Below are positions 5,831 to 64,000 of a stretch of DNA of 64,000 bases, piece by piece. The position numbers and the translations under genes were made by a program. The stretch's first letter is position 1; each line of letters opens with the position of its first letter. Below the pieces are notes generated by a model. It worked only from the letters and a program-made list of their open reading frames with translations. It did not search any database and had not been told where the DNA came from. This DNA is from Gnetum montanum (lineage: Eukaryota > Plantae > Gnetophyta): contig MNCI01002706.1 of the NCBI GenBank assembly GCA_015680685.1, positions 304,712-368,711 on the forward strand. The letters are read 5' to 3'.

Positions 5831-6147
5831 TTTAGCAATTTTTTGATTTTTCTTAGTTTAACGTTAGGAGTGATGTCGATAGGTGTGATTCTGTACTCAG
5901 CATCCCCTTCGCTGATCACGTTGAACGGTAATTCAGCCCAAGGGACTTCTGATGGAACGGCCTCTATGTTGGCATCTTCTAGTGTTTCCGTGTGTCCAGC
6001 AGTTTCGATGTTTGTTGTAGTTTCGAGGTTATTCGGTGTATGTACAGTTTCAAGTCTAGATGTTTCTATGTTGGGTAGAGTTTCATTTACGTCTAATGGA
6101 TCATTGTTTACTGGTTGCGTGCAACTTTTTTTTTCATTTATGTCATC

Positions 6148-6605
6148 CTATTTAGGCTCTTCAAACTTAACCACCGAACCTTGGTCTACACCTATATGTG
6201 ACGAGATGGTAGACGTAGCAGCATCTCCATGTATAATGATTTCACCACCTTCGTTAAGTAGGTGAATCTCTTGGTGTATGGGGGAAGAGACTACTTTGAG
6301 TTGGGCCAACCAGGGTCTTCCTAATATTAAATTGAACCTTGGCATTTCGTCGATGACAACAAAGTTAGCAGATGTGGGGAATCGATCCCCTACTATAAAG
6401 TCTAAGGCTATGGTGCCTTTTACTACTACGCGTGATCCACTAAATGATTTTAAACATGTGGTGGAGGTTAGTTTAATTAATTCTATGAGCCCTAATTGTT
6501 CGATGATGGGGTAGGGTATTACGTTTGTGGTGGCTCCATCATCTACAGGCACCCGATGTATTTTGAATTGATTTACTTATATCGTTATGAACATAGGTGC
6601 GTGGG
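6148..6605 (-). pseudogene. Retrotransposon aspartic protease (Ogre/Tat-like)
   Basis: HAPMFITI*VNQFKIHRVPVDDGATTNVIP...FVVIDEMPRFNLILGRPWLAQLKVVSSPIHQ; followed by a low-complexity tail, not RT. Confidence 0.85.
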
Positions 6606-6649
6606 TGACATCTCCATTTTGCTCGTCAATCTTAATGTTTTCGAGGTGA

Positions 6650-9600
6650 AAGCTTAACTATTTGGGTTTGAATCCTTGTCGTTTAGACATTACCGCATGT
6701 ATGGAAGGCTCATCTGTAGGTAAGTTTTCACTTACTGGGATTGATGTTAACATGTGTACTAGGGCTTTGCGATGAGTTTGAGAAGAAGTTAACATCAAGT
6801 CATATAGGCTTAGTGAAGTATTTTTTTGTTTAAGTGCCTGCGTGACCTATGTTAGGGCTATTGGTAAATATTTACTGTTAGGTGTATGTTTGTTAATGGT
6901 TACTTGGTCCATTGGGCCCAGCAGTTTTATCTCATTTGTAGCTGGTTTGACATTTTCTTCTATGACTGTTGATTTAGATGCATCATGTATTCCCAATGAT
7001 TCTCCCTTATAGCTCGTATTCAGTTCATTAGGAGGCGATGCCATGGGTACTGCGCTTAATGGAGTAGGCTTGGGGGGTCCTAAGGCAAGCTGTTGACATT
7101 CTTTCTCCAATCGTTCCCATGTGAGCCTATCTGCTAGGCGTTCCCACATGTGGCATGGGGGAACATTTGGTTTCTAAATATCTGGTTGCTTTGGAACCCG
7201 TATGACGTATGGACAAGGTTGTGATTGGACGGTCAAAGGTGGTTGAGTGTCAGGCTACCTAGGCACCCTAACGACATATGGGGTCTGTTTATTTTGTGTT
7301 TGCGGGGTGGAAGGTTGGTGGTTATCAGGGTTTTTGGGTATCCTGACAACATATGGAGTCGGTCTAGTTGGGGGTTGTACCTCCGTAGTTGCGACTGCAA
7401 GTGGCACCCGAACTACATAGGGAGTGGGCCGAGTAGGAGGTTGTGTGTTTACAGTAGTAGCGGTGAGAGGTACATGCACCACGTATGGTTCTGGTGGTAT
7501 GGTAGAGGCTGCCACTGTGGGGGGTATCTGGATGTCATAGGGTCTTTGCAGGGTAGGTGGGTTACATGGAGAGTATGATGGTTGAGGCACGGGTGTTTGT
7601 GTAGTAGGAGGAATACGAACTACAAATGGTCTTTTAGGTTTTTGCTGCTCATTATCTAAATAAAGGGTGTTAATCTGAGGTGCTTCTTGTTCGTTGTCTA
7701 AGTGGATAGTGTTAATTACGTATGGAGCTTCCTTGGTATTTAGAGGATCCTTATATATGCCCATGGCCTGGTTTTGTGGTTTGACTGGGTTGGCCTCATC
7801 AAAAGTGATCTCACCTCCGTCGATCATCCGTTCAATATCTTGTTTTAGAGTGAAACAATAATCAGTGTCATGCCCATTGCGTTGATGATAATCACAAAAG
7901 CGGTCTATTCTAAAGCCCCTTGGAACTGGAGGCTCATCTGGCGTTGCCAAGCTTGGGTTCTCGACCAACTGACAGAATCGATCATGTCTTTGGATTGCTG
8001 CTGGGAACAATTGTTTATGTTTCATTAGCCCGACCTTCAATAGTTAGTCAAATAATTATAAGGGTTTCATGGGCAACGGCGTGTATTGAGAAGGGTCTCT
8101 CTTCTCAAAGTTTCTCGCATGACCTGGCGTAGGATTTTGTGATGTGGACCGTTCGGGTGCAGTAGCAAGAGCAGGTCTAGCATAGTTAGTAGGGGCAGTA
8201 GGTGGTTTGCCTTATTGTCCCGTACTCGTTTGTTGTGTTTATGCTACTGCTGCTATAGTTTCCTTAGCCTTTTCTTTGTCTTTCTTATTATGTTGGTTTT
8301 TAAAGGCTGAATAGGTAGGGTCATGGCTATTTTGGGCTACCTCTTCTATGTTCTTTATTTGCACAAATGCTTGGTTAAGAGTGCGTGCGTTGAGATAGTA
8401 TAATTTGGACTTCACAAAATCATTAACAGCCCCCTTTAGAATAGTGAGGAGATAAGTCTCCGGGATTGGCTCATGGAGCTTATTGAGGGCAACACTCCAC
8501 CGTTGAATAAATTTTTGAACAGGTTCAAGCGATGCTTGCTTGACCTGTATGAGGCTGTCAAGTGTTGCTTCAGGTTTCAAGTTATACTTGAACCTGGTAA
8601 CGAACTGGTGTAATAAATCTTCCAAAGAGAATATGGAATTTTGGGGCAATGCCTGATACCAGTCAAGTGCTCTCCCTGTGAGGGACATGGGGAACACTTG
8701 CAAAATGGCATGCGGCCATGCCTAAAGCAACACGCACTCTAGTCTAAACGTTATAAGATGGGCATTGGGGTTTGTCTCCCCATTGTATTTAGTTAACATG
8801 GGTAAGGAAAAACCCTTAGGTAATGTTAGAGGTGGAACCGAAGAGCTGATAGGGTCATCTTGATAGAAATCACTATCTTAAGCTCTTTGTCGGTAGCTGT
8901 TTTGAGGCGCTTGACCTCATCAGTTAGTTCTTGCATCATTTTCTTGGCTTCAGCCCAGTCTTGGACATTAGGTGAGATGGCAGATTGATTATGTGGTGTA
9001 GTATACAAGTTAGATTGTTGCATAGTGGGAAGGAAAGAGGAAAGTTGAGTGGTTGGAGGTTGGGCTTGTGGAACATTCATGATAGGTGCTACTAAGGGTG
9101 GCATACTATAAGGGAAGGGTTGTTGTTGCTGTTGTTGTTGTACTTAAGGGACATTCACAGGTGGAATTGTACGAGGTGGTACATTGTAGTTAGGGGGTTG
9201 ATGCGCTTGTGTACCAGTCCCAGCCCACTATCCAGTCATGATTTGTGAGGGAACACCTTGGACTTGTTGAGTGGAAGTGATGAAGGGTGTTCTTTGGGTT
9301 TGGATCTGTGGTATATAGTGGATGAATGTAGAAGCAGGTATCACATATGGCATCCCGATCACTCGAGGTGGGAAGGTTGCTCCTACTTTAGCTTGAGGCG
9401 GGTGTTGTTGGGGTTGTATTTGCAAGAGAGGGGGTAACATGGTGACTGGAGGAATAGTGGCGATGGGTATGTTGAATTGGGTATCGGTCATGGGGAGTGT
9501 GGGAACAAGGGTGGAGGCTTCCTGTTGAGGCACAAGTGCTTGAGTGGTTTTAAATGAATGGAGGAACATAGTCTCCCCCGTAAAGGGTTGGGACAACGGG

Positions 9601-10154
9601 TTCACATAAGTTTGTGGGCTGAGGGTATAGTATGAATCTTCATGTTCGGATTGAGCTACAAAGTCATCCTCCTTTTCCAATTAAGGATTTGCCATAGACT
9701 GGTCTAAAGACTGATTCCTAGCTAAGAGGAGCTGTGAGATAAGTTCAGAGTAGTGCTCTGGAAGAGGGATGACATCATATGGGGAAGGGATGAACTCATG
9801 TCTTCCCCTATGAAACAGTTCATATTGCCTCTTAGCCTCCATTTTAGTTTGATCCACTATTAGGCTGGCTTGGATTTTTATGCATATAAAATTATATTGT
9901 TCCTTTCTTATAACATTAAATGACGGATTTCTCCCTTGCAGTCTAAGAGATTGGCGAGCTCCTCCCCAAGGATTAACCTCACCGTGGACCCCTAAGGGTT
10001 GCATAATGGGTATCGGCATCGTCGTGGGGCCCACGGTATCCAGAATGGACTTGGTTGAAACATTGGTATTGGCAGTATTCATGGTGAAAAGGTCGTAAAT
10101 GTAACATGGTGGAAAGGACATAGTGTCAGGGTGTACAGGTGAGGATTTGGCCAA
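6650..10154 (-). pseudogene. Disrupted gag polyprotein (P/Q-rich N-terminus, Retrotrans_gag capsid at about 8240-8830, zinc knuckle at about 7850-7900, PYVVRVP repeats)
   Basis: ORF pieces 9681-10154, 9228-9680, 8826-9104, 8239-8703, 7255-8040 and 6847-7149 are collinear, broken by stops and frameshifts. Ogre-type LSLYDL..SQTHRKAL segment at about 6760-6815. Confidence 0.85.
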
Positions 10155-12544
10155 GTATGAAATGGGTGTGCTTATCAGCGTACACCTTAGTTTGCAGCGT
10201 GCGACCTATTTGTACAGTGTATGGACTAGGTCCCAGCGTACAGGCTTTAATGTTCAATGTACAGGCTTCAACGACTAGCGTACAGAAACTAATCACAGCG
10301 TGTAAACTGAAGTCACAGCATGTAGGTTGCAACTATCAGCGTGGAGCCAAAGTGGTCAATGTGTTGTGAGTGGTGGCAGCATGTAGATAGGGTCTACGGC
10401 GTGCGGGTTGACTGGGTAGTGTGTAGAAAGGGTCTACAGCATGCGGGTAAGCTGTGGTAGCGTGCAGATGCTGAGATTGCTACAAAATAGGACATAGATT
10501 CAGAGAGTTGCAAAATCAGATTTAATGTTGGTGCAATGTAAATCTGAGAAAATCAGGCGATAGATCAGGAGGCATGTGTATGAGATTAGAGTAGATTTAA
10601 ACAGTTTTAGGCCCTCCTTCTAATCCCATTTTCTATACTATCTGAAATCGTCCATGCAAGGTTGGAATGGGGTGAGCACCGCGTGATTTACAGATGAGCA
10701 CAGAAGACCCTACCTTCACTTGAGGGCGAACTGGGATGAACGAAGGTAGAGTACCTTGGGTGGTCCGCACGCGGATCAGACAAGGATTTCCCCAACGTAT
10801 GCCAATATGCAATATGCTAGGTTATGTGTAAACAGCATGATTAATGTAAATACAAAGCATAAATTTGCATTAACTTAAACAAAAGAAATGAGCCAAAATA
10901 AATGAAAACTGTGACAAATTTGGAGTAGAAACAAAGTAACTTTATTTCCATATGAGAATTATAGTGCACCGGTCCAGACGTAGTCGTAAATTTGACACGA
11001 GGTGGACGAAAGGCCCTGGTGGATGCTGGAAGATGATGGTGTGCTAGTTCAAACTGTAAGCACAGCATGAAAGTTGTATGCTCAGTGTGCAGGGTCAAAG
11101 TCCAGCATATGGGGGTTCTTGCTCTAACTTACTTAGTGTTTTTCCAATTTCAGTTTTTTTTATCTCTTTTCTCAAAATTGCCAACCCTGATCTAGTGAAA
11201 AATTAGGGTTTTTATGAGGTTTTTTGAGCGTTGGATTCGGATCTGAAAAGGTATGAGTGGCCATGGATGAGGGAATTTCAAGTCAAGTGACAAGTGGCTG
11301 CATTGCCCAAGTGCAAAGAATATTATAACTATGCAGTGTGCTGCATGCCAACATGTGCCGCTACACGCCATCGTGTACATGCTGGGCATGTGAACTCAGC
11401 GTATAGACTTGACTAAAACAAAAGAATTCATTTTTACAAACTACTGTTACAACAGGAAGTATCCAATTCGGCCCTCGGATTTGGGCTCAGATGTTACGAG
11501 AATGCTGCCTGTGGATATTCAGCTCAATTGGACTTGATCTGACATGGTTCTGAAAAGTTCCACTGATATATGCTATGCTCCACGCTGGATGATGCACGCC
11601 AGGCATACATGTTGGGCGTACATGCTGGGCCTGCACGCTGGGCGTGTACGCTGCATACTCAGTGAAAACCAAGTATTTTTAGCTCAAAATTTGGTAGGGT
11701 TCAACGCCAAATGTTGTCGTAGTCTGTTGTGAATCCCAGGGAACTATTTCTTGCTCAGTTCGACTCCGTTTGAAGCTGTTCGTGAGGCCGTCAAGCTTTA
11801 GTCATGGTGGGAGCATCATGATTTTAGCTCGATTCTTGTTGGAGAAGTACTAAGTTCAGAATTTTGTGGTGTTTCATTAGACTTTCTAGATCTTCTCTTA
11901 TAAATCGATAAACCATATATAATGGGTGATCTTCTTGATCTTCTAGTTTTCACTCCACTACTTGTTCCCAATTCAAAAACTTTCTTTTGTTATTCTTTTG
12001 ATGAACAATTGATCTTAGAATTAAGAATATCTTTTGAAACTTTTAAATTTTTCAAACTATCAATCTTCTTGGTCATGAACTGAAAATAGTATTTAATTTC
12101 TTAAGCCTTTATAGTAACAAAGAATGGTTGATGTGCTAAAATTATAAGGCTTATGAACTTAGAGGCTAAATCTTCAGCCCTCCTTGTAGTGCCAAAAGAA
12201 CTGTTGACGATCATTTGGGACACAACTGCCAACGAGTGTCCTTGAACAGGATTTAGGTGCTTGCTGATCTCTAGCAACACCAAGGCCTAGATACCTCCAA
12301 ATAGACTCAGTAGTTAATGTGAGTATGTGTGTGTGCTATTGTGGTATGCTAGTCTGAAAAATGAAATGATTGGATTGTGTGTAAAACTATAAATGACTTA
12401 TCTTAAAGNGTCTGAAAAATGAAATGATTGGATTGTGTGTAAAACTATAAATGACTTATCTTAAAGAGATTCATCCAACTTTGTAAAGTGTTGTGAGCTG
12501 TTGAGAGTTCCTATTTTGTTCAATTGCCTAGTCTATGCGGTCCT

Positions 12545-13722: not shown

Positions 13723-14072
13723 CCATGATGGCCATTGCAATAAGCGCTCCATAAAATTTTCATTTTTTTTTGTTGCATGTGAGAAAATATGCTAAAATTA
13801 TTTTTAGCCACCAAACCATATGAAATTGAAACTTTATTTTGTTACTTCAATTTCATGTGTTCAGGTTTTGTACTTGCTTTCAGCAATGATGATTTTCTTC
13901 ATAATAAGCCATAACCCCGATTCATCGGCTAAATAATCTCCCGGTTCCACTGATTTATTTGTGCACCTGTCTTGCTGTGTCTTCGTGTCTCTGTAGCCGC
14001 ACTTGATGGATTGGTAATGACGATGACGAACGCATTGGAGTTGGGCGTTGCTGTGTTTGCAATTTTTGTTTG

Positions 14073-14360
14073 TGCTAGAAATGGCTATTGCCAATGAAAT
14101 GGGCATCAGACACAATCCTTTTCCCTGTAGGTACTGTATTGCCAATCCCATGTCTTCTTCCATCAGCTTGGCTACCTGCTTCTCAGTCAATGATAGACCA
14201 TCAGAGCATGAGTTCTAGCTACCGTTGCCTCTGGCATTTGCCGCCTCAGAAGGCATATCAACCACAAGTGAAGCTACTACTCCTACATCCCCCAGTCTAC
14301 TCATGCTTAAAACCTTAACTTGAAGTTGCAAAAACTTCACGTATAATGTGATTTCATATG
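14073..14360 (-). pseudogene. Fragment of LRL/UNE12-type (subfamily XI) bHLH transcription factor, intronless
   Basis: EITLYVKFLQLQVKVLSMSRLG...[43 protein letters not shown] matches bHLH helix 2 plus the LRL domain; frameshifted, basic region absent. Confidence 0.88.
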
Positions 14361-14893: not shown

Positions 14894-15199
14894 AATTGCC
14901 AATGGTAGCTCAACAAAACCCTCAACCACCATGAATTCTAGGACACCGAAATGACATCTGATGGCATCATCAACAGCTAAGGGCACAGTCATCTCGAACA
15001 ACATGGGACCCCTATCAAGGGTGTGCTGCCCGTCAAGCACGTCGAGGGCCAAGGGCGGTAGCTTTATTTTGTCGCCAGAAGCCTCGAATGGCAGGGCTTG
15101 TAAAACATAATTGAATTTAACACCATCACCAGCAGCCAGATCCTGATGCTCCCACTCCTCCTCTTGCTCTTGTTGTTGTGCAACTTCGAGACGACGGAG
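14891..15199 (-). pseudogene. Fragment of UFD1-domain protein (At4g15420-like)
   Basis: Open frame not in the ORF track: LRRLEVAQ...AAGDGVKFNYVLQALPFEASGDKIKLPPLALDVLDGQHTLDRGPMLFEM...CHFGVLEFMVVEGFVELP, containing the GDKIKLPP and H.GVLEF motifs. Confidence 0.85.
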
Positions 15200-16249
15200 G
15201 TGTTGTAGATTTTTATTTTTATTTTCTTATTTTTTTGCAAGGTAAGAATGGCCATCGAGAATTGGAATTCCAGACACTAGATCAGAGCCAAATATAAAAC
15301 TGAGCCTAATAACAGTGCCCATGAACTACCTGGGACTAATAGTTTAATCAGTGATGACATCCTTCACATTTTGATTGCTCAATCTCATACTCCTCCACCT
15401 CTTCAGGGATAAATCATAAGGCATCGATGTTGCATCAGCTCCATTCATGACTTTGCATCAACTCTGTCAATGTAATGAGGGAAAAAATGCCCTACTGTAG
15501 GAACCGACGTACTGTGTATAGATAGGAAATATACATGATGATTCTGCCAGCCTGTCGTCGGTTAGTATTGCGGAGTTTGGTTGCAAATGGGAGGATTTCA
15601 CGGCGTGGAGGAAAAGAGGAGTGTTGTTCTTTGTTTCTAATTCAATTTCACTGTTGCATTCATAGCTCTACAAATTTTTTTATCCTTTTTGCAAAAAACA
15701 ATGGTGGTTTTCTATTGAAGCTTACAGAAGCACAGGTCTTTTCAACTCATCATGAAAAAGAAAGCTTGCTTTACAGTAATACTCTAAATCATCTAATCCT
15801 GTTCCATGAAATGGCCAAAATGTGCCAATAGGAAGAAACTCAGCTGTGGAGGTAGCTTTCTCCAATGGACTTCAAGCTTTAGCAAAAAACTCCTTGTGCC
15901 TCTAAGTACATACCTATACATCGTGAATCCACTTCTTTTATATTTTTTATATAAATTTGGTTTTTCATGTTATGCAAATTTTTGGTTTCCATTTCATTTC
16001 TACATTTATTTTTATAATTGTAATTTATTCGCATTTCTGTTCAGCCAAATCAATCTACATTTTTTTTTCATCTATGTTCCTATTGCCATTTTTGTTTTAC
16101 GTTTTCCAAGTCCTTGGGTGATCAACAAGACTGTCTAGGCTATCGTGAATCCTATTTTCTGGAGGCCCTTGGGATTTGGGATTAAGACTATTTTGGTACT
16201 TAAATCTTTTAATTTTCCCATTTTAGCAACTAAGATTTTTGGCACCAAC

Positions 16250-29739: not shown

Positions 29740-32350
29740 CATGAGATTTCATTCTTCTATTTAATTCTCAAGCAAATCATGAACAAGGAGGTCTAGAAAT
29801 TTGTGCTTCAAGAATTAAACTTTGGACCTTTCTTGGAGTTTGGACCATCAAAAGTTAAAACTCAACTGTAGAACTCTCCCATGTGGGCCACAATCACTTC
29901 CAAATAGGAGTAGTACATGGGAGAGACATACCTTTTCTAGAACAATCAACAAGCCAGTTCAATAGTTAAGATCAAGGACATTTCAGTGTCCTACTTGGTG
30001 CATGCCATCGCAAAGACCCTTGGGTTACCAGAAACTCGGGAAAACCTTGCAAAGATCCCAACGTAAGTAGATCCTGGTGTTAAGAAAGAATGGACAAAGT
30101 GGTGTTATAGAGTAGACCACAAGGAGTTTGGTGCACTAACCATGGTGGAATGTGCATTTTAAGATTGTAGCCTTCTACCTCAATCCAATGATGAGGCCAA
30201 GTAATATCATAGCTTTCTTTGCCCATGCATGTGTTGCTCTAAGCAATAGATTCCCAGTCAACCCTCCATAATTAATCTATCTTAAGATAGAGAAGTAATT
30301 TAAAGAAAATGAACATGAACGAAAGGCACTCCACTTCCCATGTCTCATCTAAAAATTATGCAAGAGGGGAGGCATAACATACTATATAAATGATGTTGTC
30401 TGACATGCTTTGTCCACTTTCTAGGTAGAGATTATGAAGGATAAAGTGTCTACCAAGTCATCCAAGAAGAGGAGCAGCAACCACCACCTCCAAAACCTAC
30501 TCAAAAAACAATGTTGGAGTCCCACATTACCCTTGAGTGCATGAGCAAGATTCAAGTGCATCTCTTACAAGAGTAGGAGCAATGAGCAGGAACAAGTGGT
30601 GGTGATCCATTTTTGTATCATCAAGTGATGAATCACCTCAATAAAGTGGCTTGAACCATTATCCAGATGAAAGGAGGTGCTCTCAACCCAAATAATGTAG
30701 CTACCCATGAGATTAAATCTTAATACCTGAGAGATAACGATATCTCACTCTTAGCAGCAGCAATTACTATAAATCTCTGGAAACGCCACTATTTTTTTTG
30801 GTGCATCTAGAAAAGGGCAAGGGAGAAACTTTCTTGGTGATGTAGCACCATGGGCACAACATAGTAGTAGAGGTCAATGCTGATAGAATTGCTGAAGCAT
30901 TGAATGCACCTACAACATTTGTACTAGATGTTTCTACACTCAGAGATTTTTAGACGTCTATAAGAACCCTTAGCAATAGATTGAGTGTAGCCTAGCACAA
31001 AGAGTTGCTAGATTAATTGGTGGAAACTGGACAATTTATTTTAGATGTCTTTTACCTTCTAGATACAATCACTGTAACCTTGTTGAAGCTACTAGAAGCA
31101 AAGGACAACTACATCATATTGGAGGGGCAACTCAAAATAGCCCAAGCACAAAACTAATGCTTGGATGCGAAGGTAGCTAAATTAAGAGCCTATCTTGCTG
31201 ATCCCACATTTCTTAAGCCTACACTAATAAGGGATGAAGCCTTCAAGTAGCTTAAAGGTAGGCTCAAAAAGATTAAAAACAAGAAGAAGATGGTCATCTT
31301 CGACCCATCCATGGCTAATGCCAAAATATACATCATTCAGAAGGACTTGTTCTAGATGCCTCATGAGAATGAAATTCTAACCATAGAAAATCATTTCCTA
31401 TGGAATGTTGATGTGTAAAAGTAGCAAATGCAAGATTTTATCAATCAACAGTAGGAGTAGCTAACCAGAGTAAATAATGAATTGAGGAGATTGATATTCA
31501 AAAATAGAAATCTCTCCATGGAGAAAGTTCGTGCCCTTCACCAAAAGTTCATAATTAAGATAGCTACCCAGAAGAAAGAGGCTCTCTAATTTGAGAGAGT
31601 CAAAAATCATTATAGAGATTAGGTTGGTCTACAAAAGGAAATTAATGAAAAAGAAATCCAACTAATGAAGGCAAAGATAAATGAGGCCCTCTAGCAACTC
31701 CTGCACGAAGGTAATGTGTGGCAACCTATCTTTGATAGGTTGAATGGATACAACAAAGTGAAAATCTACATAAAGGAGTTGCAGATCAAGAAGATGACAA
31801 AGTACATGGGGCTTCTCAATCTCCATTATGCAAATCTAGTGATGCTGACTACTGATAGGCTATGGCTAGAATTGAAGAAACAAGTGGCCAACTCATACTT
31901 GTTGTACGAGGCAAAGTTCAAGCATCACAAAGACATCAAGCAAAAGCTTGAAATTTCCAACACCAAACTCAAGGTTCTCAAGGTGAAGTTCACTGATCAA
32001 CAATCAACTACTAAGAACTTACCCAAGTTAATGAATGACTACCAAGAGCTACACAATGCACTCAAAGCATTCGATATCGAATGTAAATAGTTTGCTGCCT
32101 AGTTTGTGAACATTAAGGAGCTTTTCCCTACAATGCCCTATCCATAGAATACTTCCATTCTAACCTACAATGACAAAGCCATGTGAACTATCAATGATCC
32201 CCCAAAGTAAGGAGGAGAAGATAAAGGCACTATTGGATGCCTTTCATCTTCCACCAGAAGTGGCAGCTATAGGACAACCAGCATGTGCATCTGAAGCAAT
32301 AGAAGCCTCTTTGGAGCCTCAAGAGCCACCATTGCCTAGGACCATTTGAT
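29740..32350 (+). pseudogene. Element A accessory ORF2 (Transposase_32/PMD-like N-domain + long coiled coil), disrupted
   Basis: KIKDISVSYLVHAIAKTLGLP..YLNPMMRPS..FPVNPP*LIYLKIEK..LHFPCLI*KLCKRGG; coiled coil includes ORF 31716-32090. Confidence 0.75.
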
Positions 32351-38200: not shown

Positions 38201-41200
38201 TGCTTGCATAACTTTCTACTTAGGTAAGGGAATAGAAGAATTAGCTTCTCTACCTTTTTCTCCTCAAACCACCTTTGGGTCTCTATGCAATATAGCTAGG
38301 GAAGGTTGGCTACATACTTGCGCATTAGGATGGCATTTCCCCTAGCTACATAGGTGGAGATTCAGTTGAGCCCTTTGGTGGAAAACAAGTGATATGTCCC
38401 TATTTTGAAACAAGTTCTTTCCTCTAAAGTTAATTCATTGTATGTCTTTTCATCTTTACTGTATGCCTGCCTCAGCCACAGCCTTCTTGTGTTGAGGTCA
38501 AATCTTGTAGACAAATGGGCTAACTTAGCCCTTTCATTTGGTAAATTCAAAGCTTCGCTAATTTCTTTAACTAAGAAGTTAACATTGACTCCACAAATGC
38601 TAACTTTGGTGCCTTCCTCCTTTTTATGCCAGAATTGATATGTTTCTCTAAGATGCCACTCACCACTATCTCAAAGAATAGGCCACAAAGGTGATGCCTG
38701 AAGTTGTGTCCAAATTACTTCTAGAGAAAATTCCATAAATGGATCAAAGTTCATCTCCATGATGATCATGGTCAACATGGATTTTTCTAGAATGGCCTCA
38801 AGGAATTCCAAGGACAACATGAGATGTTGTCCTTACATAGGGGCCTACGGTTCTACAACCTCTCCTTGGACCAACTGTCCTATGATAGGAGCCTCTTGGT
38901 GAATGTTGAATGAGTGAGCTTCCTACTTCTCATGCTTTGCACGTTCACCTTGTTGGCCTCAGCCACCTCATGGGTGCTTAGCTGCTCACTACAAAGGTTC
39001 TCCTTGTGCTCCTATTTTAGGACCATCTACAATCAAGCAAAGATTTGGTGATAATAACGTTGTGTTCTTTATCATTAATCAATTTACACCTTACTCGTTG
39101 CCTTAGTTCATATGATTGTAGAGTTAGAAAAAGTTTTAGGAAAAATCCCAAAAAGTATTTATCATCTTTTACAACCCTTTGCAATTGATTCCTTTTTCCT
39201 TGTGTGTGGCTTATTATAATGATAATGGCTCCTTGGGTGAAAAGATTAAAGTTTTTGGCATTATTATGATTGATTTTTTAGTATAACACTTATGGTTTTT
39301 AACATTATTACCCTTATAATATCCTTTGGGCAATAGCAAATTTCAAAAAAGTGGTGCAAGTTTTGCATGCAAGCATCCCCCCACAACTAAGTTGAACACT
39401 CCAGGATCAAATAGGTTCAACTGATATGAGAATCAGAGTGGTAGAGAGCTAAATATTACAAGTTGTAGTTGGTTGCGTAGAGCTCTAATTGGCAAGAGAA
39501 AATTTAAACAACTTCCCTAGCTACAAATGATGAAAATAAAGTTTGGGCACCACTGGGATCATATATATAGGTTTTGTGCAACTTGATATCAAGTATCCAA
39601 CATTATGTTCCACTTGATATCGGGTACTTGATACCAAGGTCCATGAATAAGCATCTTATGGGGGTACTGAGCATAAGAAATGAAGCCCTAGGTTGATTGG
39701 AAGGTTAAGAATGATGTGGTTGTGTCAAACAAGTACAAGTTACAAAAGGTACACAAGTGGATCATCCCCAAAGTAGGCTCTAACCTATAATGTCCTTATG
39801 TAACCACACCTACAAATGTCCATAGGCACTAAAGGGGTTGAATGAAATGCATACCTATGCAACAAAACACACATGTTAAAACCACCAATTTGAGATAATA
39901 ACTTTATGTTACACAAAACCACAAGTTAGGATCAAACAGACAGCAAGATGAGATAGACTATAGAAAGGATTGCAGAAATTGGGACATGAGCTATCTTACG
40001 ATGGGCACAATGAATCCTTGTGTGTTATTAATGGTTAAATAATCATGGATCCTTCTTTCTAAGATTCAAACCAAGTTCAAACTACATTTCAATGACATCA
40101 CATCATTTCATCATGTTAGCAAACAACCAAAAGACAATCATAGTTACAAGGAGTAACATCACATAGCATTTTTTCCAAGGGAGGAGCTTATTTATGGCAC
40201 AACCCTTTTTTCTTTATTTTTCTCTCTTTTTCTTTTTTATGGAAGTTCTAAGAAGCCTCCAACTTTCAAGCATGGGTACATGTCTTTCTAGTGGAGCCTA
40301 TAGAATTTATTCAATGTCTTTTTATGGTACTCTTACTTCCATTTTTCATTAGATCTACAAGGATATAATTATAGCCTCAAGAACATCATAGAACATATAG
40401 AAGTGTCCAAAGAGAATCCACAAATCCCCTTGATGTCACAGCCCTTACATTTTGCCTTGGTTCTACACTCTACTGCCTGGACACAATGATTATGGATTTA
40501 TTTTTAGGTTGGATGATGAAAAAGAATATCATTATGACTAGAGCAAGAACCTCTTATTAATGGGATGGGTGGATGGATGACATGGTCTCACTATCTGAAT
40601 AATTAGTCCCTTATGACTCAACAACATAGAGAAAACCTCACCTCAATGGGCAACATGATTGTTTTATTCACTTTCAATATTGTAGAAAGCATAGGCATCA
40701 TGGAAGGCTTGTAAATGATGTTGCAAATCTGAATCATAGCCTCTTGAAAATTTAGAAATATTATTCATATTAAGCCTGGGTAGGCGATTCTCTTTGTGAT
40801 GCCTATGAGATATCTTAACTACCTCTATGATCTACATTAGGCTTTCAGTGGCCAAAAAGGGTTCATTGTCATCAAACAAGTTGTGATGAAAATTTCTATT
40901 TGATTGATTATGAAGATTTTATCTATGTTCATGTTGATGACTGTGAGTGTTCCTGTGGGTTTGATTTTTGTTTCTATTCCAACCCTTTAGTGGAGCTTTA
41001 CCTTCACACCTACATTCATCTTCGTCAAAACTAGACGTTGAAAGGGAAGAAGAAGATGAGGAACTGGAAGGATTGCCATGGCTTCTATGGTGTTGCCCAA
41101 GGTCCTTTGATTTATCATTTCTTGGTTTTGAGGAGGTCTTAGGCCTTGAGGCCTCCCCTAGTTTAGGACTTACATCATCTCCTCCAAGATTGTTTGTCCT

Positions 41201-44374: not shown

Positions 44375-47300
44375 AAAAAAACTAAGAAAAATGAAGTTTA
44401 GATAAAGCTAGAAAAGCCTAGAATAATGGGGAATTCTTGAAGAGGGCTTGGAATATATGGTGAATGGAGATTCATAGGAGATTTATGTGCTAAGGAATGT
44501 AACAACTGGATTTTTCATGGTGGACAACATAAGGTTTGAAAGTGAAATGGCTAAGGGATAAGGAGTTTGGCTATCCCAACCTAAGTTGTCATGGTAATCC
44601 CTTAGTTACCATGATCACAACTTAGCCTAAGTGTAACTAACTAATGAGACAAGGTATCAAAGTGTTATAAGTTACACATAAAACACTAATCCTTGGCTAT
44701 GTTTGTGATCATAAATGGAACCAAAAAGAATACTAGAAGGAGAAGCATCCTATCCATGAAATAAGTGACCACGAGAGGGAAGGGACCAGCAACCACAACC
44801 ACCCCAAAAAGGAGAAGCATAAATGCATGCAACAAGACCTCTTTGGGAGGAGCCCAAAGTGTAATTTGTCCATCAGATTTCCATAATAGAAATAGGCCAA
44901 TCCAAGTGAGATGAGGTACCACAACCTAAACCAAAATTGAAGGTCACCTTGACCAAGGCCTACTTAAGGCAAATTCATACCAAGGAGGTCCAAAGTGCAA
45001 TTTTGAATAACTTAACTTTGGTTTCTTCTTGGACATGGCACCAAAAGAGGTAAAAACTTAACTACAAACCTCTCCCATGTGGCCTATTCTCACTTTTAGT
45101 GGGGAGTGATACATGGAAGAGACATACCTCTTCTAGAACAACAAATAAGCAAATGCCACAATCAAGATCAAGGACATCAGTGTGTTCTATTTGGTTGAGG
45201 CCATTTCTAAGGTCCCCTAGTTACCTAATATTGGGATAACTTTGGTGAAGATTTCAATGTAGGAAAATCCATATGTCAAGAAGAAGTGGGTCCAACGATG
45301 CTATGAAGTGGACCGTAAGGAATATAGTGCACTCACCAATGCAAAGAGGGTCTATTTCAAGATGGAGACCTACCACCTAAACCCAACAATGAGGCCAAGC
45401 AAAATCACTACCTTCTCTACCCATGTGTGTACCACTCTAAGCAAAAAGTTCCCAATCAACCTTCCACATCTCATATTCCTGGAAATTGAGAAAAAGTTCA
45501 AAGAGAATGATCATGGGAGGAAGACACTCCCCTTTCCTTGCCTCATTAGAAAACTTTACATAAGGTGAGGGATATCTCATTACACCAATGACACCCTTTG
45601 TCATGCTCCTACCACATCCTAGTAGGAGATGATAAAAGATAATGCATCCACCAAGTGGCAAGAAGAGGTGCGGCCACCACCCCCACCACCTACTCAAGAA
45701 ACAATAGCAGAGGCTTGTGCTACAACCAAGAGCATTAAAAAGCTTCATGAGCAACTCCTACAATAGCAATAAGAGGGACCAAGTGGTGGGAAACCTTTAG
45801 TCTACCAGCTAGCTTTGAGCCATCTCAATGAAGTAACCCAAACAATAAGCTAGCTAGAGGAGACTACACCACTATTTTTCACATAGAGAATGTAGGCATC
45901 CACAAGGTCAAATCCAAGCACCCAGGAAGTGATAATGTCTATCCTTGGGCAACAACAATTCCCAGAGATCTCTAGGAATGTCACCACTTTCTCAATGTGC
46001 CTAGAGAAGGGGAAGGAGCTAACTATCCTAGTGATGTAGCACCATAGATAAGAAATAGTAGTAAAGGTGGTGGTTGATCATGTGGCATAGGCCTTGAATG
46101 CTCCTACGACAGTTGTGCTAGACATTACTACACTTCAAGATGTGTAGATGTCCTCAAGAGCAAGCAGTGGAAGGCTGAGTGCAACCCAATAAGAAGAGGT
46201 GTTGGACCAACTGGTGGGAACCAGGCAACCACTTCCAGAGATCTTTGATCTCCTAGATAACATCATTACCACCCATTCAAAGCTACTAAACACTAAGGGC
46301 AAGCTCATCATCGCTAATGCGTAACTTGAGATAGCCACAACCAAAAATCGAAGGTTGGCTCCCAAATTTATGGAATTAAGAGCTTGCTTAGCTGATCTCG
46401 TCATTCTCAACCAAGTAGTAACAAGGAATGAATCTTTCTTATAGCTTTAAAACAGACTTAAATAGGCTAAGAATGCAAAGGAATGGTGGTCTTTGACACA
46501 TCTTTATCGAAGGCTCTAGCCTACAACACCAATAAGGACTTGTCATAAGTCTATAGAGAGAACCTAGCTCTGACCAAGGACATTCATTACCTGCAAAATG
46601 TTAAGGCATAAAAGGACCAAATGGTGGAATTTGTGTGACAACAGCATGAGCAGCTTGCCAGGGTAAATGATGGGATGCGATATCACGGTCGTCGTGATCC
46701 TGCATCCCTCGCGATCTCGCATATGCAATATCGCGTCGTCCCCTGCGATATCGCGGTGCGTCGTCATATCTATAAATAAGAGGCGGCTCTCCCTTTTTTC
46801 CATCCTAGGCTTAGACCATAGTGAAACTTTGGCAGATTGATCACTCCAAAGATAGAATATTTTCCATGTGCCCACAGTATGAGTCCTAAGTGAATGGATC
46901 TTTATTCGAGCAAATATTGTACCTGAACACAAGTTTTTGTACAGAAATAAAGACGAACTTCTTGGATAAACCTTGTAGTGCATGGAATAGGCTAATTAGG
47001 ATTTTATTTATTTTTATTTACTGTTTTCCATTTAAATGCTTTATTAGGAATTAAATCTTTCTCAACCCTTCTCTCCTAGTTAAGTGCCTTAGTACGACCG
47101 CTTCGAGCACGTGCGTTACGCGTGGTGATCCCAACAATGACTAGCATTTGGTAACCACGATTGCATTGGTTCAGGGTGTGAACAGTAAGTGGGAATGGAT
47201 GCTGACGCTAGGTTAATTCAGACTTAGTTAGTTAGTTAGAGTTAGTAATTAGTCTCTTCAACCCTTCACCTCTCAACATAGGAGATAAAACAAAAATAGC

Positions 47301-52563: not shown

Positions 52564-52746
52564 CAATGCCAAAAGTTGCATGAAATTGATTTACCTTCAG
52601 GATTTTTTCAATGCCAAAAGTTGCATGAAATTGATTTACCTTCAGGATTTTTTCAATGCCAAAAGTTGCATGAAATTGATTTACCTTCAGGATTTTTTCA
52701 ATGCCAAAAGTTGCATGAAATTGATTTACCTTCAGGATTTTTTCAA
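52564..52746. repeat. Perfect 45-bp tandem repeat x4
   Basis: caatgccaaaagttgcatgaaattgatttaccttcaggatttttt repeated four times identically. Confidence 0.95.
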
Positions 52747-52946
52747 CAAGTGGCAACAAAACATTTGATTATTATTTTTTTTTTTTTTAAGATTCATTTG
52801 CAGTCAGGAAAAATTACCGAGGGAGAAATGAAAATTCTATTGCTTCAAGCAACAATTCAACTTGTTTGCCTTCATCGAACTTTATGATATAACTTTAAGG
52901 ATCTAAAAAATGGATATGATTTTTTATTTTAAATTTCTGTAATTTG

Positions 52947-57000: not shown

Positions 57001-60000
57001 CCATCAAAACATTCATTTCTTTGGTTTTTCTCAATATAAAATATCCAATTTTTTAGAAGCTATAATGTTAATTTGTTTATAACTTTAATCTTTGCAACAG
57101 AAATTCCTAAGCGCTATGAGAACATTCGGCCCAACCACCTGTCGTAGCAAGGTTACACAATAATTGAAAAAGAAATATACTAATAACAATGACTCCAACT
57201 CAATTAGCAACATTACAAGAACAACAAACAGCATATAAATATGCAAGGCGTGAGAACGATCGATTAACAAGAGAAACTCAACCCAAACCATATACAAGAT
57301 AGGAACTCAAAAGCATCCTGACCTAAATTAACTTCAGAAATGCTACAGCTGCTCCAACATCAATTCAGGCATAATCCAGAAACCATCAATGATGAAATTC
57401 TGGAAGGAAAGAAAAAAACAATTTTTTTATTACACATAGCATTTGCAGTGGCTAAATACCTGCTGACCCATTAACAGTATCAAGTTATAAAAACAACGAA
57501 AAAAGATCAACCAAAATGTTGAAATGATTCTAAAGACATTTACAATGTTACCCGTCTGTAACGGACAGTCAGGATTCTATACTCCTAATTCTAAGAATAA
57601 TTAGAAAATAACAGTTATCTAATAATTGAAAAAAGAAATGCCTGACACGTTCAGTTGATGTAACCAAAAGAAAAAAGTAAATAAAGGAACTTATATGCAC
57701 CTACAATAGTCCAAAATCCAAAAAGGAACTCAAGCTGTTGGCATTGCTGATGATAATGCATGTCCTGAAAAGTTTCCAATTAGAATGTTGCAGAAATATC
57801 ACAGCAGCAAAATTGAATGGGAGAAATTTTTTGTGATGACCATGTTTTGCCTTTGGAACAGCACGGAGGCTGCTGTTGGTGCCAATTTTATGCTCTTAAC
57901 TGTTGCAAAACAGATCTGGAATCATCTTAAATAAACATATTCTCAGGAACACATAATTCTAGGGTCTATAAGATGTTTGAATAGTTATTTTCTTTGAAGA
58001 AGCGGACTAAAATATTATCTGAATACGCGTTATCAGTTAATATGTTATCTGAAGAGGTTACACGTTATCGGTTAATATTTTACCTGAAGAAGTTACTCGT
58101 TATCAGCCATTCACCACCAATCTGGATCAGCAGAAGGAGGAGGAATTTTTGTTATGGAAATACATATGTTTTTCAAAATGGCTAGAAGTCTGGTATTTTT
58201 TTTTTAATGTTCTTTCCATATCGCAGTTCCAGACAATTCCAGTCACATCTGTCATTTTGAATCTCTAAAATGAAAGAACAATCCATGATTCCATCAACAT
58301 TTCAGAAGTATGATGCGAGTCACGAGGAATATGTTTTAGTGTTGTTTAATAATGATTGTGGCTCAAACTTGGATATGCCCTTGGTTAATGTAGATGCTTG
58401 GTACTGATGGTGTTACTTGGATACATATGGCATAATCCAAATGGGATGTAGGTCATCATGGTTAGATGGGTAATGGAATTCACATTCATGCTATTGGCTG
58501 CATATCATGGTTGGTTTATTAGTAGTAATTTGGTGGCATTCATGTAGATTAATAGTATTAGCGTAGGACATGTGTAGGTTATATCATACATGATAGATGG
58601 ATAATGGAATTTGGATTCGTGCTATTGGCTGCATATCATGGTTGGTTTGTTCAGTTGTAATTTGGTGGCATCCATGTTGATTGATAGGATTATCTTAGGA
58701 CGTGTGGGTTATATCATCTCACAACTAAGGCCTAGATATTGAACTGAAACTGAAACTGACACCCAGAGAAGTAATCCAGCATTTCGTGAAAGGACAAAGC
58801 AAATTGGAGTGGACTGTCACTTTATAAAAGAAGTTTTCCTGGCTAAGAAGATATACACTCCTTGCATAAATCTAAATATCAACTTTGGTGATATTTTCAC
58901 AAATGCAGTATCTAGGTCAGTATGTAACAAGCCAATCATGAGGGATACATATGCACCAGCATGAGCCATCATTGTTATCATCATCATCATTCTAGCCTTA
59001 TCCCAATTGTATGGGGTCAGATATATATGCACCAGCTTGAGTGGGACTGTTAAATTACATTGTATCTAGACTGTGGCATAGGTAAATTCTATCTAGCCAT
59101 ACTTTTGTCCTTTGCTTATTATTATTTATTGTTGTGTGTGACAAACCTCGGAATCATACTGAACTCTCTCTTCACATTGCCTTCTCTAGGGACTGTACTT
59201 TGCTAATTGACAATAAGATAGCATGATACCAAGCCATTTTGTCCAGTGTTAAAATAAAACACCTACCACGAACATCCACCAAAGAAAGATGCCATTGACG
59301 GTTACATCCGAGTTGGATGATTCAAATTCAGCCTAAGACTAGGCTTGATAGTAAACCCATACATCTAGTTTCACTATAAGAAACCTACCACAAGAAGTTG
59401 GGAAACCATACCAAGAATAATACTGGAAAGAGACATATCATGGCTTTAATTCTTGATTCCTAGTTTACCTCATCATATCATCATCATCATCATCATCATT
59501 ATGCCAGCCTTATTCCAACTACATGATATCAGCCATATAATTTCTTTTCCACCATTCACTTCTATTGAAAGCTAAATAAGCATTAACACCCAAATCTGGA
59601 GGAGATATTGCTCAAGCTATGCAGAGATATTGGTCAAGTATCTAAAGGAGGGGGGAATCTCCCCTTGTTTTGGTTCCAATCCAGAAAGTGGTTGGGGAGG
59701 TGGATAACCAAAGGCTCATTGCACCCATTACTAAACAGGAGTTGTCAGAAGCTATGGAAATGCTCAAAAGTGCTAAGGCTCCGGGACCTGATGGATAGCC
59801 CATTCTTTCATGAATTCACAGACATTCTAGGAGGCTATATATTGGATGCCTTTAACCTCATGCTGAAATGGCAGCAAGTCCGACATAAGATCAAGTGTTC
59901 CAAAATCGCGCTCATCCCAAAGACCACTAATCCAGTGGAGCCATCACACTTCAGGCCCATTGGAATGTGCAACATGCTCCTCAGACTCTTTACAAAAATT

Positions 60001-63000
60001 CTGGTAAAACGTCTCCAGCAGCTGATGCCAACCTTGGTTGGTATCCAACAGGCGGGATTCATCAAAGGCATATTCATACATTACTAGATCCTTCTCCTGC
60101 AGGAGGTTATGCATTCATTCAATGTGCCAAGTTCCCATGTATGTGTATCAAACTAGATATAACCGAAGCTTACGACATTGTCCATTGGAGTGCCCTCCAA
60201 GATATCATGCTCAGGAAGGGAATTCATCCCAATTTCGTTAACTTATGCATCAACCTCCAAGCCATGGGGGCATACTCCTTTGATATTAATGGACAGTTCT
60301 AGGGGTTTTCCTCCCCCAATACAGGCCTTCACCAAGGGGACCCTCTCTTGCCATACTTATCACCATGGATACCATGAATCTTTCCTATAGGATGGAAGGA
60401 GTCAGAGGGCTACACATTGAAGAGGTAAATTGTATCACCAAACATTATGCTAACATCGTTGTCCCGCAAGCACAAGTAGTGAATAGTGTGCTTAATAGAC
60501 TGGCACAAGAGGTAGGGCTGGAGCTCAACAAGGGGAAATCTTTGATCCACTTCTTCCACACTCAAGGGACTATCAAAAATCAAGTGTGCTAGGAGCTCAA
60601 GATCTTGCAAGGAACGATACAAGATTCCTCCCTGAGAATGCATGTATGCATGGAATAGGAAAACATCATGGAAAAAGCTAATTCAAAAACTTCAATTGCA
60701 AGAGGGGCACTGGACCTCATGCTTCCTCACACAAAAAGGTAAGATCATCCTAGCTACTTCGGTTCTTTCCACCATTGCTAGATTTGTTGCCTCTGTCACC
60801 ATTCTTCCAGAAGCTGTAATTAGCAAAGTAGATTAAATTATTCGAAATTTTATCTAGTCTGGAGAAAAAGGGTGCGAACAAATGCACCATGTCTAATAGG
60901 AGAAGGTTGCTAGACCTAAATCGGTGGGGCGTTTGGGGGTGCTAACGTTTGATGATGCCATCCTAATGGGATATCAAGGGATCATAAACAGATTCATGCA
61001 AAATGATGAGTACCCAGCTCAATGGGTTCTTATTCTTAAGAACAAATATTGGCTGTCAACCACTGACACCCAGGATTTTCACATCTGGCATAACCTCTAG
61101 AACCATGTGCATAAGGTAAGTCAATGGGGAATATTAGGTACGCAACCGCATGATATCATCAAGCACAAATACCCTATTGTTCTTAGTTGGGGGCCCACCT
61201 GGAAAGGCCACCTACCGAACAAGATAAATGCTTTATCTGGCTCCTTTTATAGGGCATGCTGCCGATGCAATCATTACTACGGGAATGGGGACTGCATTTA
61301 AATGACACCTATCCCTGTTGTAGTTCTACAGAGGAAACAATCCATCACTTCGCATATCTCTACCCCTTTGTTGCTACTATCTAGAGAGCCACTACCATCC
61401 AACTGCTGATGCACTTGCATGGTGACATGCCTAATGCTACCATTCTCTAGCGCCTCTAGAAAGTCCGCAACAAGCTTATTTTTAGGTCAATGCCTCTTAG
61501 ACTACTAGTGCAAGTTGTGTTCCTTGGGCTACAATTGTGGAAAGAAGCAGTGGCAGCAATGGGTGTGACCCCTACATATGAGCCTAACTATGAGAGCTTC
61601 CAGAGCAACTAGGTGCTCTAGGATATGGTCATGTGAGTGCACTAGGCCAACCTCTTGCCCTTGCTCCTAGGGAACCCCAACCTGGCTGACAAGGCATTCT
61701 ACAAACAATGGAGAGAAGACTCCACTATGTTCCACGACATCTGCATCTCCTTGACTAAGGCGACTATCGTAGGGTACCGAAGGATGGGGAGGTGGTCTTG
61801 CCCATGGATAGGGAGCTACAAGATGCAAAAGGTTTCTTTAACGGGCTGGTGCCCAAGATGGATAGTGATCAGGTCCTGAAGTCTACACTACCACAGCTCT
61901 AACAAGACACAGTAGAGTTAGTGGACCGCTACTTCGTGCATTCTGAGAACATCTAAAAGCTGCAAGGGGCACACTTCACCTTCTTGAGGTGTTGGCAACT
62001 TGGCTACAAGGTCAACAGCCCAAAATTCCTATTGGCCTCGTTACATAGGGGGTGGGCCGTCATTCTAGTTTGATTTTGGCTCTCTGGCAAGCTGCTCCGC
62101 TGCTAGATTCACCATCTACTCAACCTTCACCTTTCACAGCTAGCTATGAGCAACGTTGTAATATTAAAGGGGCTTCCTCTTCGTCAACACTAGTGGCTGG
62201 CGGTGGTGTAGGTGGGCTAGGGGATGGGTCTAGGTTAGATTCGCAAAAGTCTACCACCAACCACCATTTAATGTGCATAAGCAAATCATGCAAGTTGTAG
62301 GTGCACTCCGCAATGAACTACAAGCAAAATACGATGAGGACCTTGCTAAGGCCACTGTGGAAGTGGAGGCCAGGGTGCACACAAAAGAAAGGGCTACTTG
62401 GAAGGGAAAGCTACAAAAGCTGGAGCAAAAGTAACATCTACTCTCTAAGCAAAAAGAACAGCACCACATGGAGGCCGCCATCATGAACGAGTTGAGGATG
62501 CTTTGTGTGCATAGATAAAGGAGGAGCACGAGTGCAAAAGAAGGGCTAAAGAAGAGGAGGAACAGCAAGTTAGAGACTAGTTGGAAGAGCAACAAATGAA
62601 GCATAGCCAAGATGCCACCCATGAGTCAAATGCCCATCGTTAGCTGCAAATGGGACAATGCCCTTACATCATCATGGACGTTAACTGAAATAATGCATGG
62701 CACACCTTGCACAAATTCATTCAGATCACCACAGGCAAGTTGCATCCTAATGGGGCTAGAGGGATGGAAGCCGAGGCATGCAAAAAGCGAGAAGAATAGT
62801 ACAAACAATTCCAAGAGGCTACTGCCTTCATGGCTTCTAAACATCACAAGGTAGTTCTGGATGCCATCCATGCCTAGGAAAGGGCTCACTGGCCCTGCAA
62901 GAGACTGCAAAGATGTCTTTAGTGTCAAGTTCTAGGGTGGGGTGGGGTGGGGTGATGATTGGGGGTCTCTTCCCTTTTAGGGGGTATGGGGGGGCGGGGA

Positions 63001-64000
63001 GCAATGGTTTAGGGCCCTTTGGGGGCCTTGCAGTCTTGTGTGTGTTCTATTTTCTCTCAGTCAGGGGAAGATATATCCCCTGAAAGTTTTGCTAGGGAGC
63101 CTTTACCCCCAATTTTGCTTTAGCAAAAGAGGTTCTTCTCCCCTCCCCTGTCAAATTGTACATACACCATTCCCAATTTGATTATAATATTAAAAGCCCC
63201 GACCTCCTTTCAAAAAAAAAACACCCAAATCTTGGGCATCTTTCTTTATGCTTACAAACCAAGTATGTTTGACTGGGAATTATATTTCTTCTAGTAATTT
63301 TCAAGTTGTAAGGCCTAGGTTTGAGCCTGGGCATAGCCACATTAAAAGAGGTTAAGGCTTTCACTTATCTACCAGCCCTCTTGGGACCCACCAGGAAGGA
63401 TGAATATTAAGCCTCCAAGTGATAACCTTTTTAAGTTTTGATGTTACAGAAAAGATCAATAAAGCAAGGAATTTACATGCAAAAACTGCATTCATATGTA
63501 TAATATTTTCAACTCAAGTTATTACAAAATTTCTAAATTATTGATAGGAATCACTCTGAAATCATAAATGGATTAAGAAAAGCCTAGTGCAAAATATAAG
63601 CAACAGCTTCCAAATGCATATACAGAAAGATAAATTATATATGTATATATTCAACTGATGTTGAAACTCAACCTCGCTGTAGGCGACTTATGAGAGGACG
63701 ATCTTTTCTATAATGCTCAGCTGGACCAGACACTAATTTTGATACCCCACGAACCAAGGCCAATAATGATCGAATAGGTGGAACTCCCTCAAGCACATTA
63801 CGAACCTGGAATAGATAGTGTTCGCAAGTAAGAATATTTTCCAAAGAGAGAAAATGATTATTTATATCTAACAAGTCCCATAATACAAGGTCACCTGATT
63901 CTGAGCAATATCTTCAAGCCAATTCCCTACAACAATTTCCGATAGACTGTTCCAGCCATACACACCAGTAGTCTCAACTCCCTTCAGGTGTAACTCAATG
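54006..64000 (-). CDS. ATG2: Autophagy-related protein 2, C-terminal part (gene continues beyond the window)
   Basis: Exons 63895-64000 (IELHLKGVETTGVYGWNSLSEIVVGNWLEDIAQNQ), 63673-63805 (VRNVLEGVPPIRSLLAL..SRLQRG), 54611-54813 (MLAFARSFSLEAVSCGLHLASGAH..QPANACQGLQQ), 54165-54361 (ACETMTRGLERTASSLIRNP..ALLGVRN) and 54006-54069 (SLDPDRRKESEEKH..*). All introns GT-AG with consistent phases; matches the ATG2 CAD/ATG_C region. Confidence 0.93.
58447..58718. repeat. About 130-bp imperfect tandem duplication
   Basis: tgctattggctgcatatcatggttggttt..gtaatttggtggcat..taggac..gttatatcat occurs twice. Confidence 0.8.
58966..59024 (-). mobile_element. Ultra-short 5'-truncated RTE-type retroposon tail with 17-bp TSD
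   Basis: (cat)n..gccttatcccaattgtatggggtcag flanked by atatgcaccagc(a/t)tgag at 58949-58965 and 59025-59041. Confidence 0.7.
59470..63275 (-). mobile_element. RTE LINE 3' end split by the L1 insertion (pieces about 59470-59597 and 63220-63275)
   Basis: Rejoined minus strand reads TWFVSIKKDAQDLGVNAYLAFNRSEWWKRNYMAD..* followed by a (GAT)n tail, typical of a plant RTE C-terminus. Confidence 0.75.
59598..63219 (+). mobile_element. 5'-truncated L1-type LINE with 13-bp TSD AACACCCAAATCT and poly(A); ORF2 extended by an accessory module
   Basis: RT motifs IALIPK..HFRPIGMCN..KILVKRL..QQAGFIKG and KLDITEAYD; zf-RVT PCCSSTEETIHH; L*RL*KVRNKLIF. A-tail 63212-63219; TSD at 59585-59597 and 63220-63232. 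Confidence 0.9.

Follow-up and report, generated by a model that had tools for sequence, protein, structure and literature searches.

The window considered here is a stretch of 64,000 nucleotides (nt) from the Gnetum montanum genome (contig MNCI01002706.1), and all coordinates are positions in it. It is rich in decayed transposons, with long introns filled by transposable elements and strong CG and CHG decay, features that would suit the large genome of a gymnosperm or fern. Close to its right-hand end, at 59598-63221, lies an insertion that is an L1-type long interspersed nuclear element (LINE), 5′-truncated just upstream of the reverse transcriptase (RT). Our subject is the part of this element that follows the zinc finger of its second open reading frame (ORF2), where approximately 450 codons of decayed coding sequence likely run on.

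The insertion is flanked by an exact 13-bp target-site duplication, with the 5′ copy at 59585-59597 (+) and the 3′ copy at 63220-63232 (+), and ends in a short poly(A) tail, read from the sequence at approximately 63212-63221 (+). It bears an RT (PF00078) and lacks long terminal repeats (LTRs), and the poly(A) end and target-site duplication are both present. Four DNA sequencing runs were aligned to the stretch at 80% likeness, and contigs that track the left flank to 59597 and then continue into sequence resembling the right flank are found in each (loose ends in 67, 62, 63 and 24 contigs). Such contigs are empty sites, in which a high-copy host repeat lacks the insertion, and the limits of the insertion follow from them together with the 13-bp repeat and the A-run. 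An earlier note on this DNA had described an L1 LINE bounded by a target-site duplication and poly(A), and this description is borne out by the exact repeat, the A-run and the matches to the RT and zinc-finger families (PF00078 and PF13966).

The host repeat is on the reverse strand and is separated by the LINE into a 3′ part at 59470-59597 (-), in which an RTE-like coding tail is accompanied by a CAT/ATG microsatellite, and a 5′ part at 63233-63430 (-), in which a head like that of a short interspersed nuclear element (SINE) carries a B-box-like word and leads into the beginning of the RTE-like tail. Both parts are delimited by the joined flanks, the former also by high depth and the latter by contig depth. 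Joining the flanks across the insertion yields an open C-terminus with an RTE-like motif, a microsatellite end and, upstream, a B-box-like word. The repeat is consistent with a SINE whose tail derives from RTE, which the LINE would split. Tails of this kind are described for Au-like SINEs (PMC6007223). A further set of loose ends occurs at 63270, in 20-55 contigs per run, and may mark the point at which RTE copies part from SINE copies.

What remains of ORF2 begins with the end of the linker between endonuclease and RT, followed by the RT itself (59598-60380, +), where stops and frameshifts interrupt the reading; ORF1 and the endonuclease are missing from this 5′-truncated copy. RT pieces match PF00078 with E values of 3.9e-5 and 7.7e-4, both under the Pfam curated cut-offs, and one RT piece is about as similar to human L1 ORF2p (E 6.9e-6) as to R2 proteins (E 1.1e-5). 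The rest of the RT, the thumb and the post-RT region occupy 60380-61190 (+), where a Pfam search gives no relevant match; this region is placed by the frame posterior of the coding model described below and by L1-like motifs. The zf-RVT domain, with its CCHC region, a W..W..RN..IF motif and then a helix, follows at 61190-61560 (+). It is decayed, and its match to PF13966 (E 0.024) is likewise under the curated cut-off. A helix after the W..W..RN..IF motif is the usual end of ORF2 in plant L1 elements that lack RNase H. It is from the zf-RVT domain, the poly(A) tail, the target-site duplication and the L1-like motifs, and not from an RT tree, that the element appears to be of L1 type.

The sequence beyond the zinc finger, hereafter the tail, was read as a frameshift-tolerant path through an amino-acid model trained on 2673 codons of other ORFs in the window, with 100 dinucleotide shuffles per region providing z-scores. 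The segment 61490-62052 reaches z 7.0 (0/100 shuffles) with a single shift at 61774, the same place as had been picked by eye, while the whole tail reaches z 5.4 (0/100) and the known part of ORF2 z 3.1 (1/100). Three intron regions and the 3′ untranslated region (UTR), used as controls, all score below 1. The frame of the zf-RVT domain has a posterior of 0.91-1.0 over 61302-61662 (0.99-1.0 at 61422-61602) and is favoured until approximately 61775. Between 61250 and 61783 this frame contains eight stops (seven TAG and one TGA), and the other two frames contain 7 and 11, so that the counts alone do not single it out. TAG prevails in the known ORF2 frames as well (12 of 15 stops), and the density of stops along the path is similar on either side of 61490 (13 in 624 codons before, 12 in 475 after). 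The claim of the earlier note that the zf-RVT frame continues past the zinc finger with only TAG and TGA stops is upheld for this part, and the peptides that it quoted are present. Its claim that one shift then leads to the coiled coil is not: the model changes frame three times after the junction (at approximately 61775, within 62050-62220 and at approximately 62500), reading by eye requires four shifts (at approximately 61775 and 62050, near 62220-62280 and at approximately 62515), and the segments after the later shifts also contain TAA stops. The post-shift reading quoted in that note itself crosses the second shift at approximately 62050, with ..SLHRG in one frame and GVGRHSSL.. in another. 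A long non-coding 3′ UTR that merely resembles protein would agree with the lack of a database homologue and with raw stop counts in 61250-61783 that do not favour the frame. The z-score of 7.0 with one shift at the by-eye place, compared with 0.1 for the true 3′ UTR, and an alignment to another copy that runs for 336 nt with 56 differences but no gap (see below) nonetheless make this explanation very improbable.

Along its length the tail can be divided into a junction, a core, a linker and an end segment, all on the forward strand. The junction (61560-61645), drawn from the frame posterior and a stop scan, keeps the zf-RVT frame and is either a decayed linker or the true end of ORF2. The core (61646-62090) is decayed coding sequence of approximately 150 amino acids, with the shifts at approximately 61775 and 62050 noted above, and is likely helical, as a low-confidence structural model suggests. 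The linker (62090-62275) is rich in serine and glycine (30% S+G) and ambiguous in frame; one frame is stop-free, and the model weakly prefers another. The end segment (62276-62922) is rich in E, K, Q and R (36-39% over the last 215 codons), contains a frameshift at approximately 62515 and has a possible terminal stop at 62920-62922; it is delimited by composition, frame posterior and a diverged copy over 62590-62925, and probably forms a coiled coil, judging by composition alone. The S/G linker and coiled coil of the earlier note thus stand as far as composition goes. The 3′ UTR follows at 62923-63211 (+), with no coding signal (z 0.1) and two G-run tracts. These tracts, at 62935-62952 and 62980-62999 (+), lie at the start of the UTR and could in principle form quadruplexes; they recall the G-rich tract of mammalian L1.

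Part of the stretch is found in 20 of 24 sequencing runs (12 studies, 8 organisms), and the evidence from the contigs of the four aligned DNA runs comprises 287 joint rows and 5359 pieces, of which the 15 rows and 32 pieces listed are used here. In each of the four runs the extension is covered, in collinear order, by diverged copies with approximately 79-83% identity. Among the pieces listed, one spans 61693-62036 with 72 differences and 10 gaps, and another spans 62590-62925 (336 nt) with 56 differences and no gap. Assigning joint rows to one contig by their equal depth, as we infer, connects 61216-61288 with 61399-61535 and 49 letters beyond (to approximately 61584), 61760-61962 with 61983-62518, and 61768-61929 with both 61993-62160 and 62182-62267. 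The tail is therefore present in collinear form in at least two diverged copies, and one copy passes from the zf-RVT domain into the first codons of the tail. Summed contig depth, which does not equal copy number, is 25-172 in run X2 and 33-204 in run X3 across all 10 bins of the tail (61460-62899); the zf-RVT bin has a depth of 25 and 46, respectively, and most tail bins are equal or deeper. Contigs near-identical to this copy have depths of 5-6 (X2) and 9-12 (X3). Given the collinear coverage by diverged copies in every one of these runs, the tail is probably a feature of the whole LINE family. The proposal of the earlier note that the family acquired an accessory module is to this extent sustained; the other half of that proposal, an identity of the LTR-element Transposase_32/PMD type, is unsupported, as set out below.

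The results establish the limits of the insertion, its RT and zf-RVT domains, the coding character and frame of the first 560 bp of the tail, and the existence of diverged collinear tail copies. We favour, with a probability of roughly 0.55, an explanation in which active members of the family made a single long ORF2p whose C-terminal part consisted of a helical domain, a flexible linker and a coiled coil; the present copy would have been inserted by target-primed reverse transcription and would since have decayed. RT, zinc finger, a helical domain of approximately 150 amino acids, S/G linker and coiled coil would have formed a single polypeptide, the tail being probably fused to ORF2p and occupying, on this account, the C-terminal slot in which Ta11-type L1 elements carry RNase H. 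Target-primed reverse transcription would have placed the 5′-truncated copy in the SINE and generated the 13-bp duplication. Its later decay may be mostly a matter of methyl-cytosine loss, consistent with observed-to-expected ratios in the tail of 0.28 for CG and 2.1 for CTA. The tail would be a non-catalytic accessory module; it contains no recognisable enzyme motif, and for this reason oligomerisation or tethering is its most plausible role. The coiled coil is predicted to oligomerise ORF2p or to tether a partner, and the helical domain might dock on chromatin or a host protein and so affect target choice or silencing.

Several results weigh against this explanation. The half of the tail that comprises linker and coil scores weakly by itself (z 1.65, 7/100 shuffles). 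Reverse strands score too (tail, z 2.4; RT, z 3.5), which is the usual shadow of a coding strand. Protein, contig, PDB and fold searches yield no homologue, fold or function for the tail. Between copies, synonymous differences number 6 of 19 before the tail and 6 of 17 within it or immediately after it (36 of the 40 differences listed, with three UTR rows and position 60635 left out); these counts give no sign of selection in either direction, as is expected if most of the differences are this copy's own decay. In addition, no contig among those listed bridges the zf-RVT domain to the core beyond 61646, the sole bridge ending at approximately 61584.

This last result is also what would be seen if the tail were a piece of another element or gene, such as a repeated LTR-element extra ORF, that arrived by 3′ transduction or template switch, exists in one or a few copies and lies in frame by chance. 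The G+C content, 0.48 in the tail versus 0.44 in the RT part, would suit such an origin, and donors are common: the window contains three extra-ORF domains of Transposase_32-like (PF20167) type, at 29908-30367 (+), 38209-38670 (-) and 45098-45565 (+), which are decayed, related to one another and presumably parts of LTR elements. Against it, no depth bin after the zf-RVT domain is at single-copy level and the stretch before the poly(A) is multi-copy too, one diverged contig set passes from the zf-RVT domain into 61535-61584, and a tblastn search with the tail gives no significant match in the rest of the window. We regard an origin of this kind as quite improbable.

The junction raises a further point against a fused ORF2p. 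The stretch 61610-61645 packs four stops into 12 codons, approximately 15 codons past the helix that follows the zinc finger; this is the densest cluster on the 1099-codon path, and random placement of 25 stops gives P of approximately 0.03. The tail may instead be a family feature encoded as a separate ORF3, with ORF2 ending at or near 61610 and a second, same-frame protein starting just downstream, translated either through re-initiation or from a transcript of its own. Two ATG codons within the stop cluster would suit such an arrangement, and its first stop sits at the normal end of ORF2 in plant L1 elements without RNase H. However, the model favours one frame across the entire junction, whereas a separate ORF would share that frame in one case out of three, and the stops belong to the two types, TAG and TGA, that methylation decay produces, TAG being prevalent in the known ORF2 frames also. 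A separate ORF3 is, on balance, an unlikely though serious alternative to the fusion.

The identity of the tail was addressed by profile, sequence and structure searches. The earlier note had labelled it a Transposase_32/PMD-like domain in place of RNase H. Five tail pieces (61490-62922) and two sub-pieces give no match to PF20167, PF10536 or PF13456, the splitting of the pieces by frameshifts lowering the power of these searches. By comparison, a control piece of 101 amino acids from the same window (45263-45565) matches PF20167 with E 5.9e-8. No RNase H was detected after the zf-RVT domain: the five pieces lack any PF13456 match at E up to 1, in a search run without an RNase H positive control. 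The search for PF10536 likewise had no positive control, and a whole PMD is longer than any one of the tail pieces. The three PF20167-like copies in the window have no significant tblastn match to the tail, and a profile made from them gives no hmmsearch match and an hhalign probability of 0.1%. The local score of the tail against this profile is below the shuffle mean, being matched or exceeded by 207 of 300 and 278 of 300 shuffles with two matrices, and pairwise BLAST of the tail against the PF20167 control gives E 9.

By eye, the end of the core aligns without gaps to the C-terminal block of the PF20167-like copies around an N-x-P motif. This block, chosen post hoc, has a negative score that is equalled or exceeded by 28 of 1000 shuffles, with one of 10 unrelated controls scoring nearly as high, and the N-terminal block is unremarkable (516 of 1000 shuffles). 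Single-sequence AlphaFold models of the tail are of low confidence (pLDDT 40 and 44), and a fold search with one of them finds generic helical bundles only (best Z 5.8). Neither profiles nor folds, then, bear out the Transposase_32/PMD label, despite the clear match of the control. A remote relation to PF20167 is possible because the query is badly decayed, and we hold the link to Transposase_32/PMD to be doubtful rather than implausible. The fuller proposal, in which a Gypsy-type extra ORF, made up of a remote Transposase_32/PMD domain and a coiled coil, was taken up by an L1 family and retained in frame as a module at the C-terminus of ORF2p, is distinctly unlikely. If it were true, it would amount to a transfer from LTR to non-LTR elements, and, with the host relatives MAIN and MAIL1 acting in silencing, the LINE would have gained a chromatin-docking or anti-silencing arm.

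Wider collections add little. Word-based protein searches give no match for the tail piece 61780-62052, the post-RT piece or the RT piece; HMMER finds none for 61490-61783 among 1.84 billion representatives; and no locus was confirmed in metagenome contigs (queried with tail and RT) or viral contigs (queried with RT and the PF20167 control). These blanks carry no weight on novelty because the RT and post-RT pieces are blank too. The best PDB sequence match of the tail, TPR-CHAT (E 0.0076 overall, 0.1 for the domain), was taken as chance, and the Pfam matches to PAC1 (E 0.007), Utp21, MgtC, SlipAM and Stork_head, all below cut-off, as compositional noise.

Elsewhere in the window, two ATG2 exons lie at 63671-63805 and 63892-63999 (-), with matches to PF13329 (E 4.8e-10 and 3.4e-5) that cover model positions 1464-1542 of 1697. 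The LINE is probably antisense to ATG2 and downstream of these two exons, in an intron. Approximately 155 model positions remain downstream, and further exons, which were not located, should lie leftward beyond a very long intron. A decayed region at 5800-10200 (-) is, by its motifs, presumably Gypsy-like gag and protease. An exon-like piece at 13864-14214 (-), without a Pfam match, seems to us to resemble the C-terminal part of bHLH proteins of the LRL/UNE12 type, an ORF piece at 14894-15226 (-) what we take to be the start of a UFD1-family protein, and a fragment at 58760-58960 (+), by motif, presumably the last part of the RNase H domain of a Copia element. A tandem array of a 45-bp unit in approximately four identical copies (52564-52788) is possibly recent or an assembly artefact. 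A tRNA search finds no tRNA gene in the window.

Two architectures are described for the ORF2 proteins of plant L1 elements, one that stops after the zinc finger and one that carries RNase H. The present evidence consists of one decayed copy and fragments of others; a family with a retained tail of approximately 450 amino acids would add a third plant L1 ORF2 architecture and would suggest that retrotransposition involves an accessory function not yet described. A literature search, with Repbase and key subscription papers outside its scope, returned no LINE with a Transposase_32/PMD domain and no plant L1 with such a tail.

Among known systems, the tail is similar in layout to the Transposase_32 (PF20167)/ATHILA ORF1/PMD extra ORFs of Ty3/Gypsy elements, which share a helical domain, a low-complexity linker and coils, and one short motif aligns by eye with the PF20167-like copies of the window. 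It differs in having no significant profile match, and in the cited accounts the domains occur in Gypsy elements, MULEs and host genes and not in LINEs: Transposase_32 is reported in an extra ORF of Athila (PMC11728184) and PMD in Gypsy, MULE and host genes (PMC5418596), and the extra ORFs of LTR elements have been reviewed (PMC7264820). Were the core a relative of Transposase_32/PMD, LINEs too, besides Gypsy and MULE, would carry the domain and would offer a new setting for studying its function. SymbioLINE-Dnmt is another LINE family with an acquired accessory domain; there the gain is a DNA methyltransferase in ORF1, with a proposed bearing on host silencing (PMC5890265), whereas here it is an unassigned domain after ORF2.

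Foreign domains are known to be added at the C-terminus of ORF2 (PMC4686597, PMC5348765). Ta11-type plant L1 elements carry an archaeal-like RNase H downstream of the CCHC zinc finger (PMC5348765, PMC5203782) and so resemble the present element in adding a domain after the zinc finger of an L1-type ORF2; unlike them, this element has no PF13456 signal, and its added part is longer, likely helical and rich in E, K and Q at its end. R1/TRAS LINEs of insects carry a viral SF1 helicase at the C-terminus (PMC4686597) and similarly have foreign sequence in frame at the end of ORF2, including a long spacer without known homology, yet they belong to another clade and are found in another kingdom, and their addition is a recognisable enzyme where none is recognised here. 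The gain of a C-terminal domain by the ORF2 of a LINE is a known kind of event, and the present tail is probably a further instance of it.

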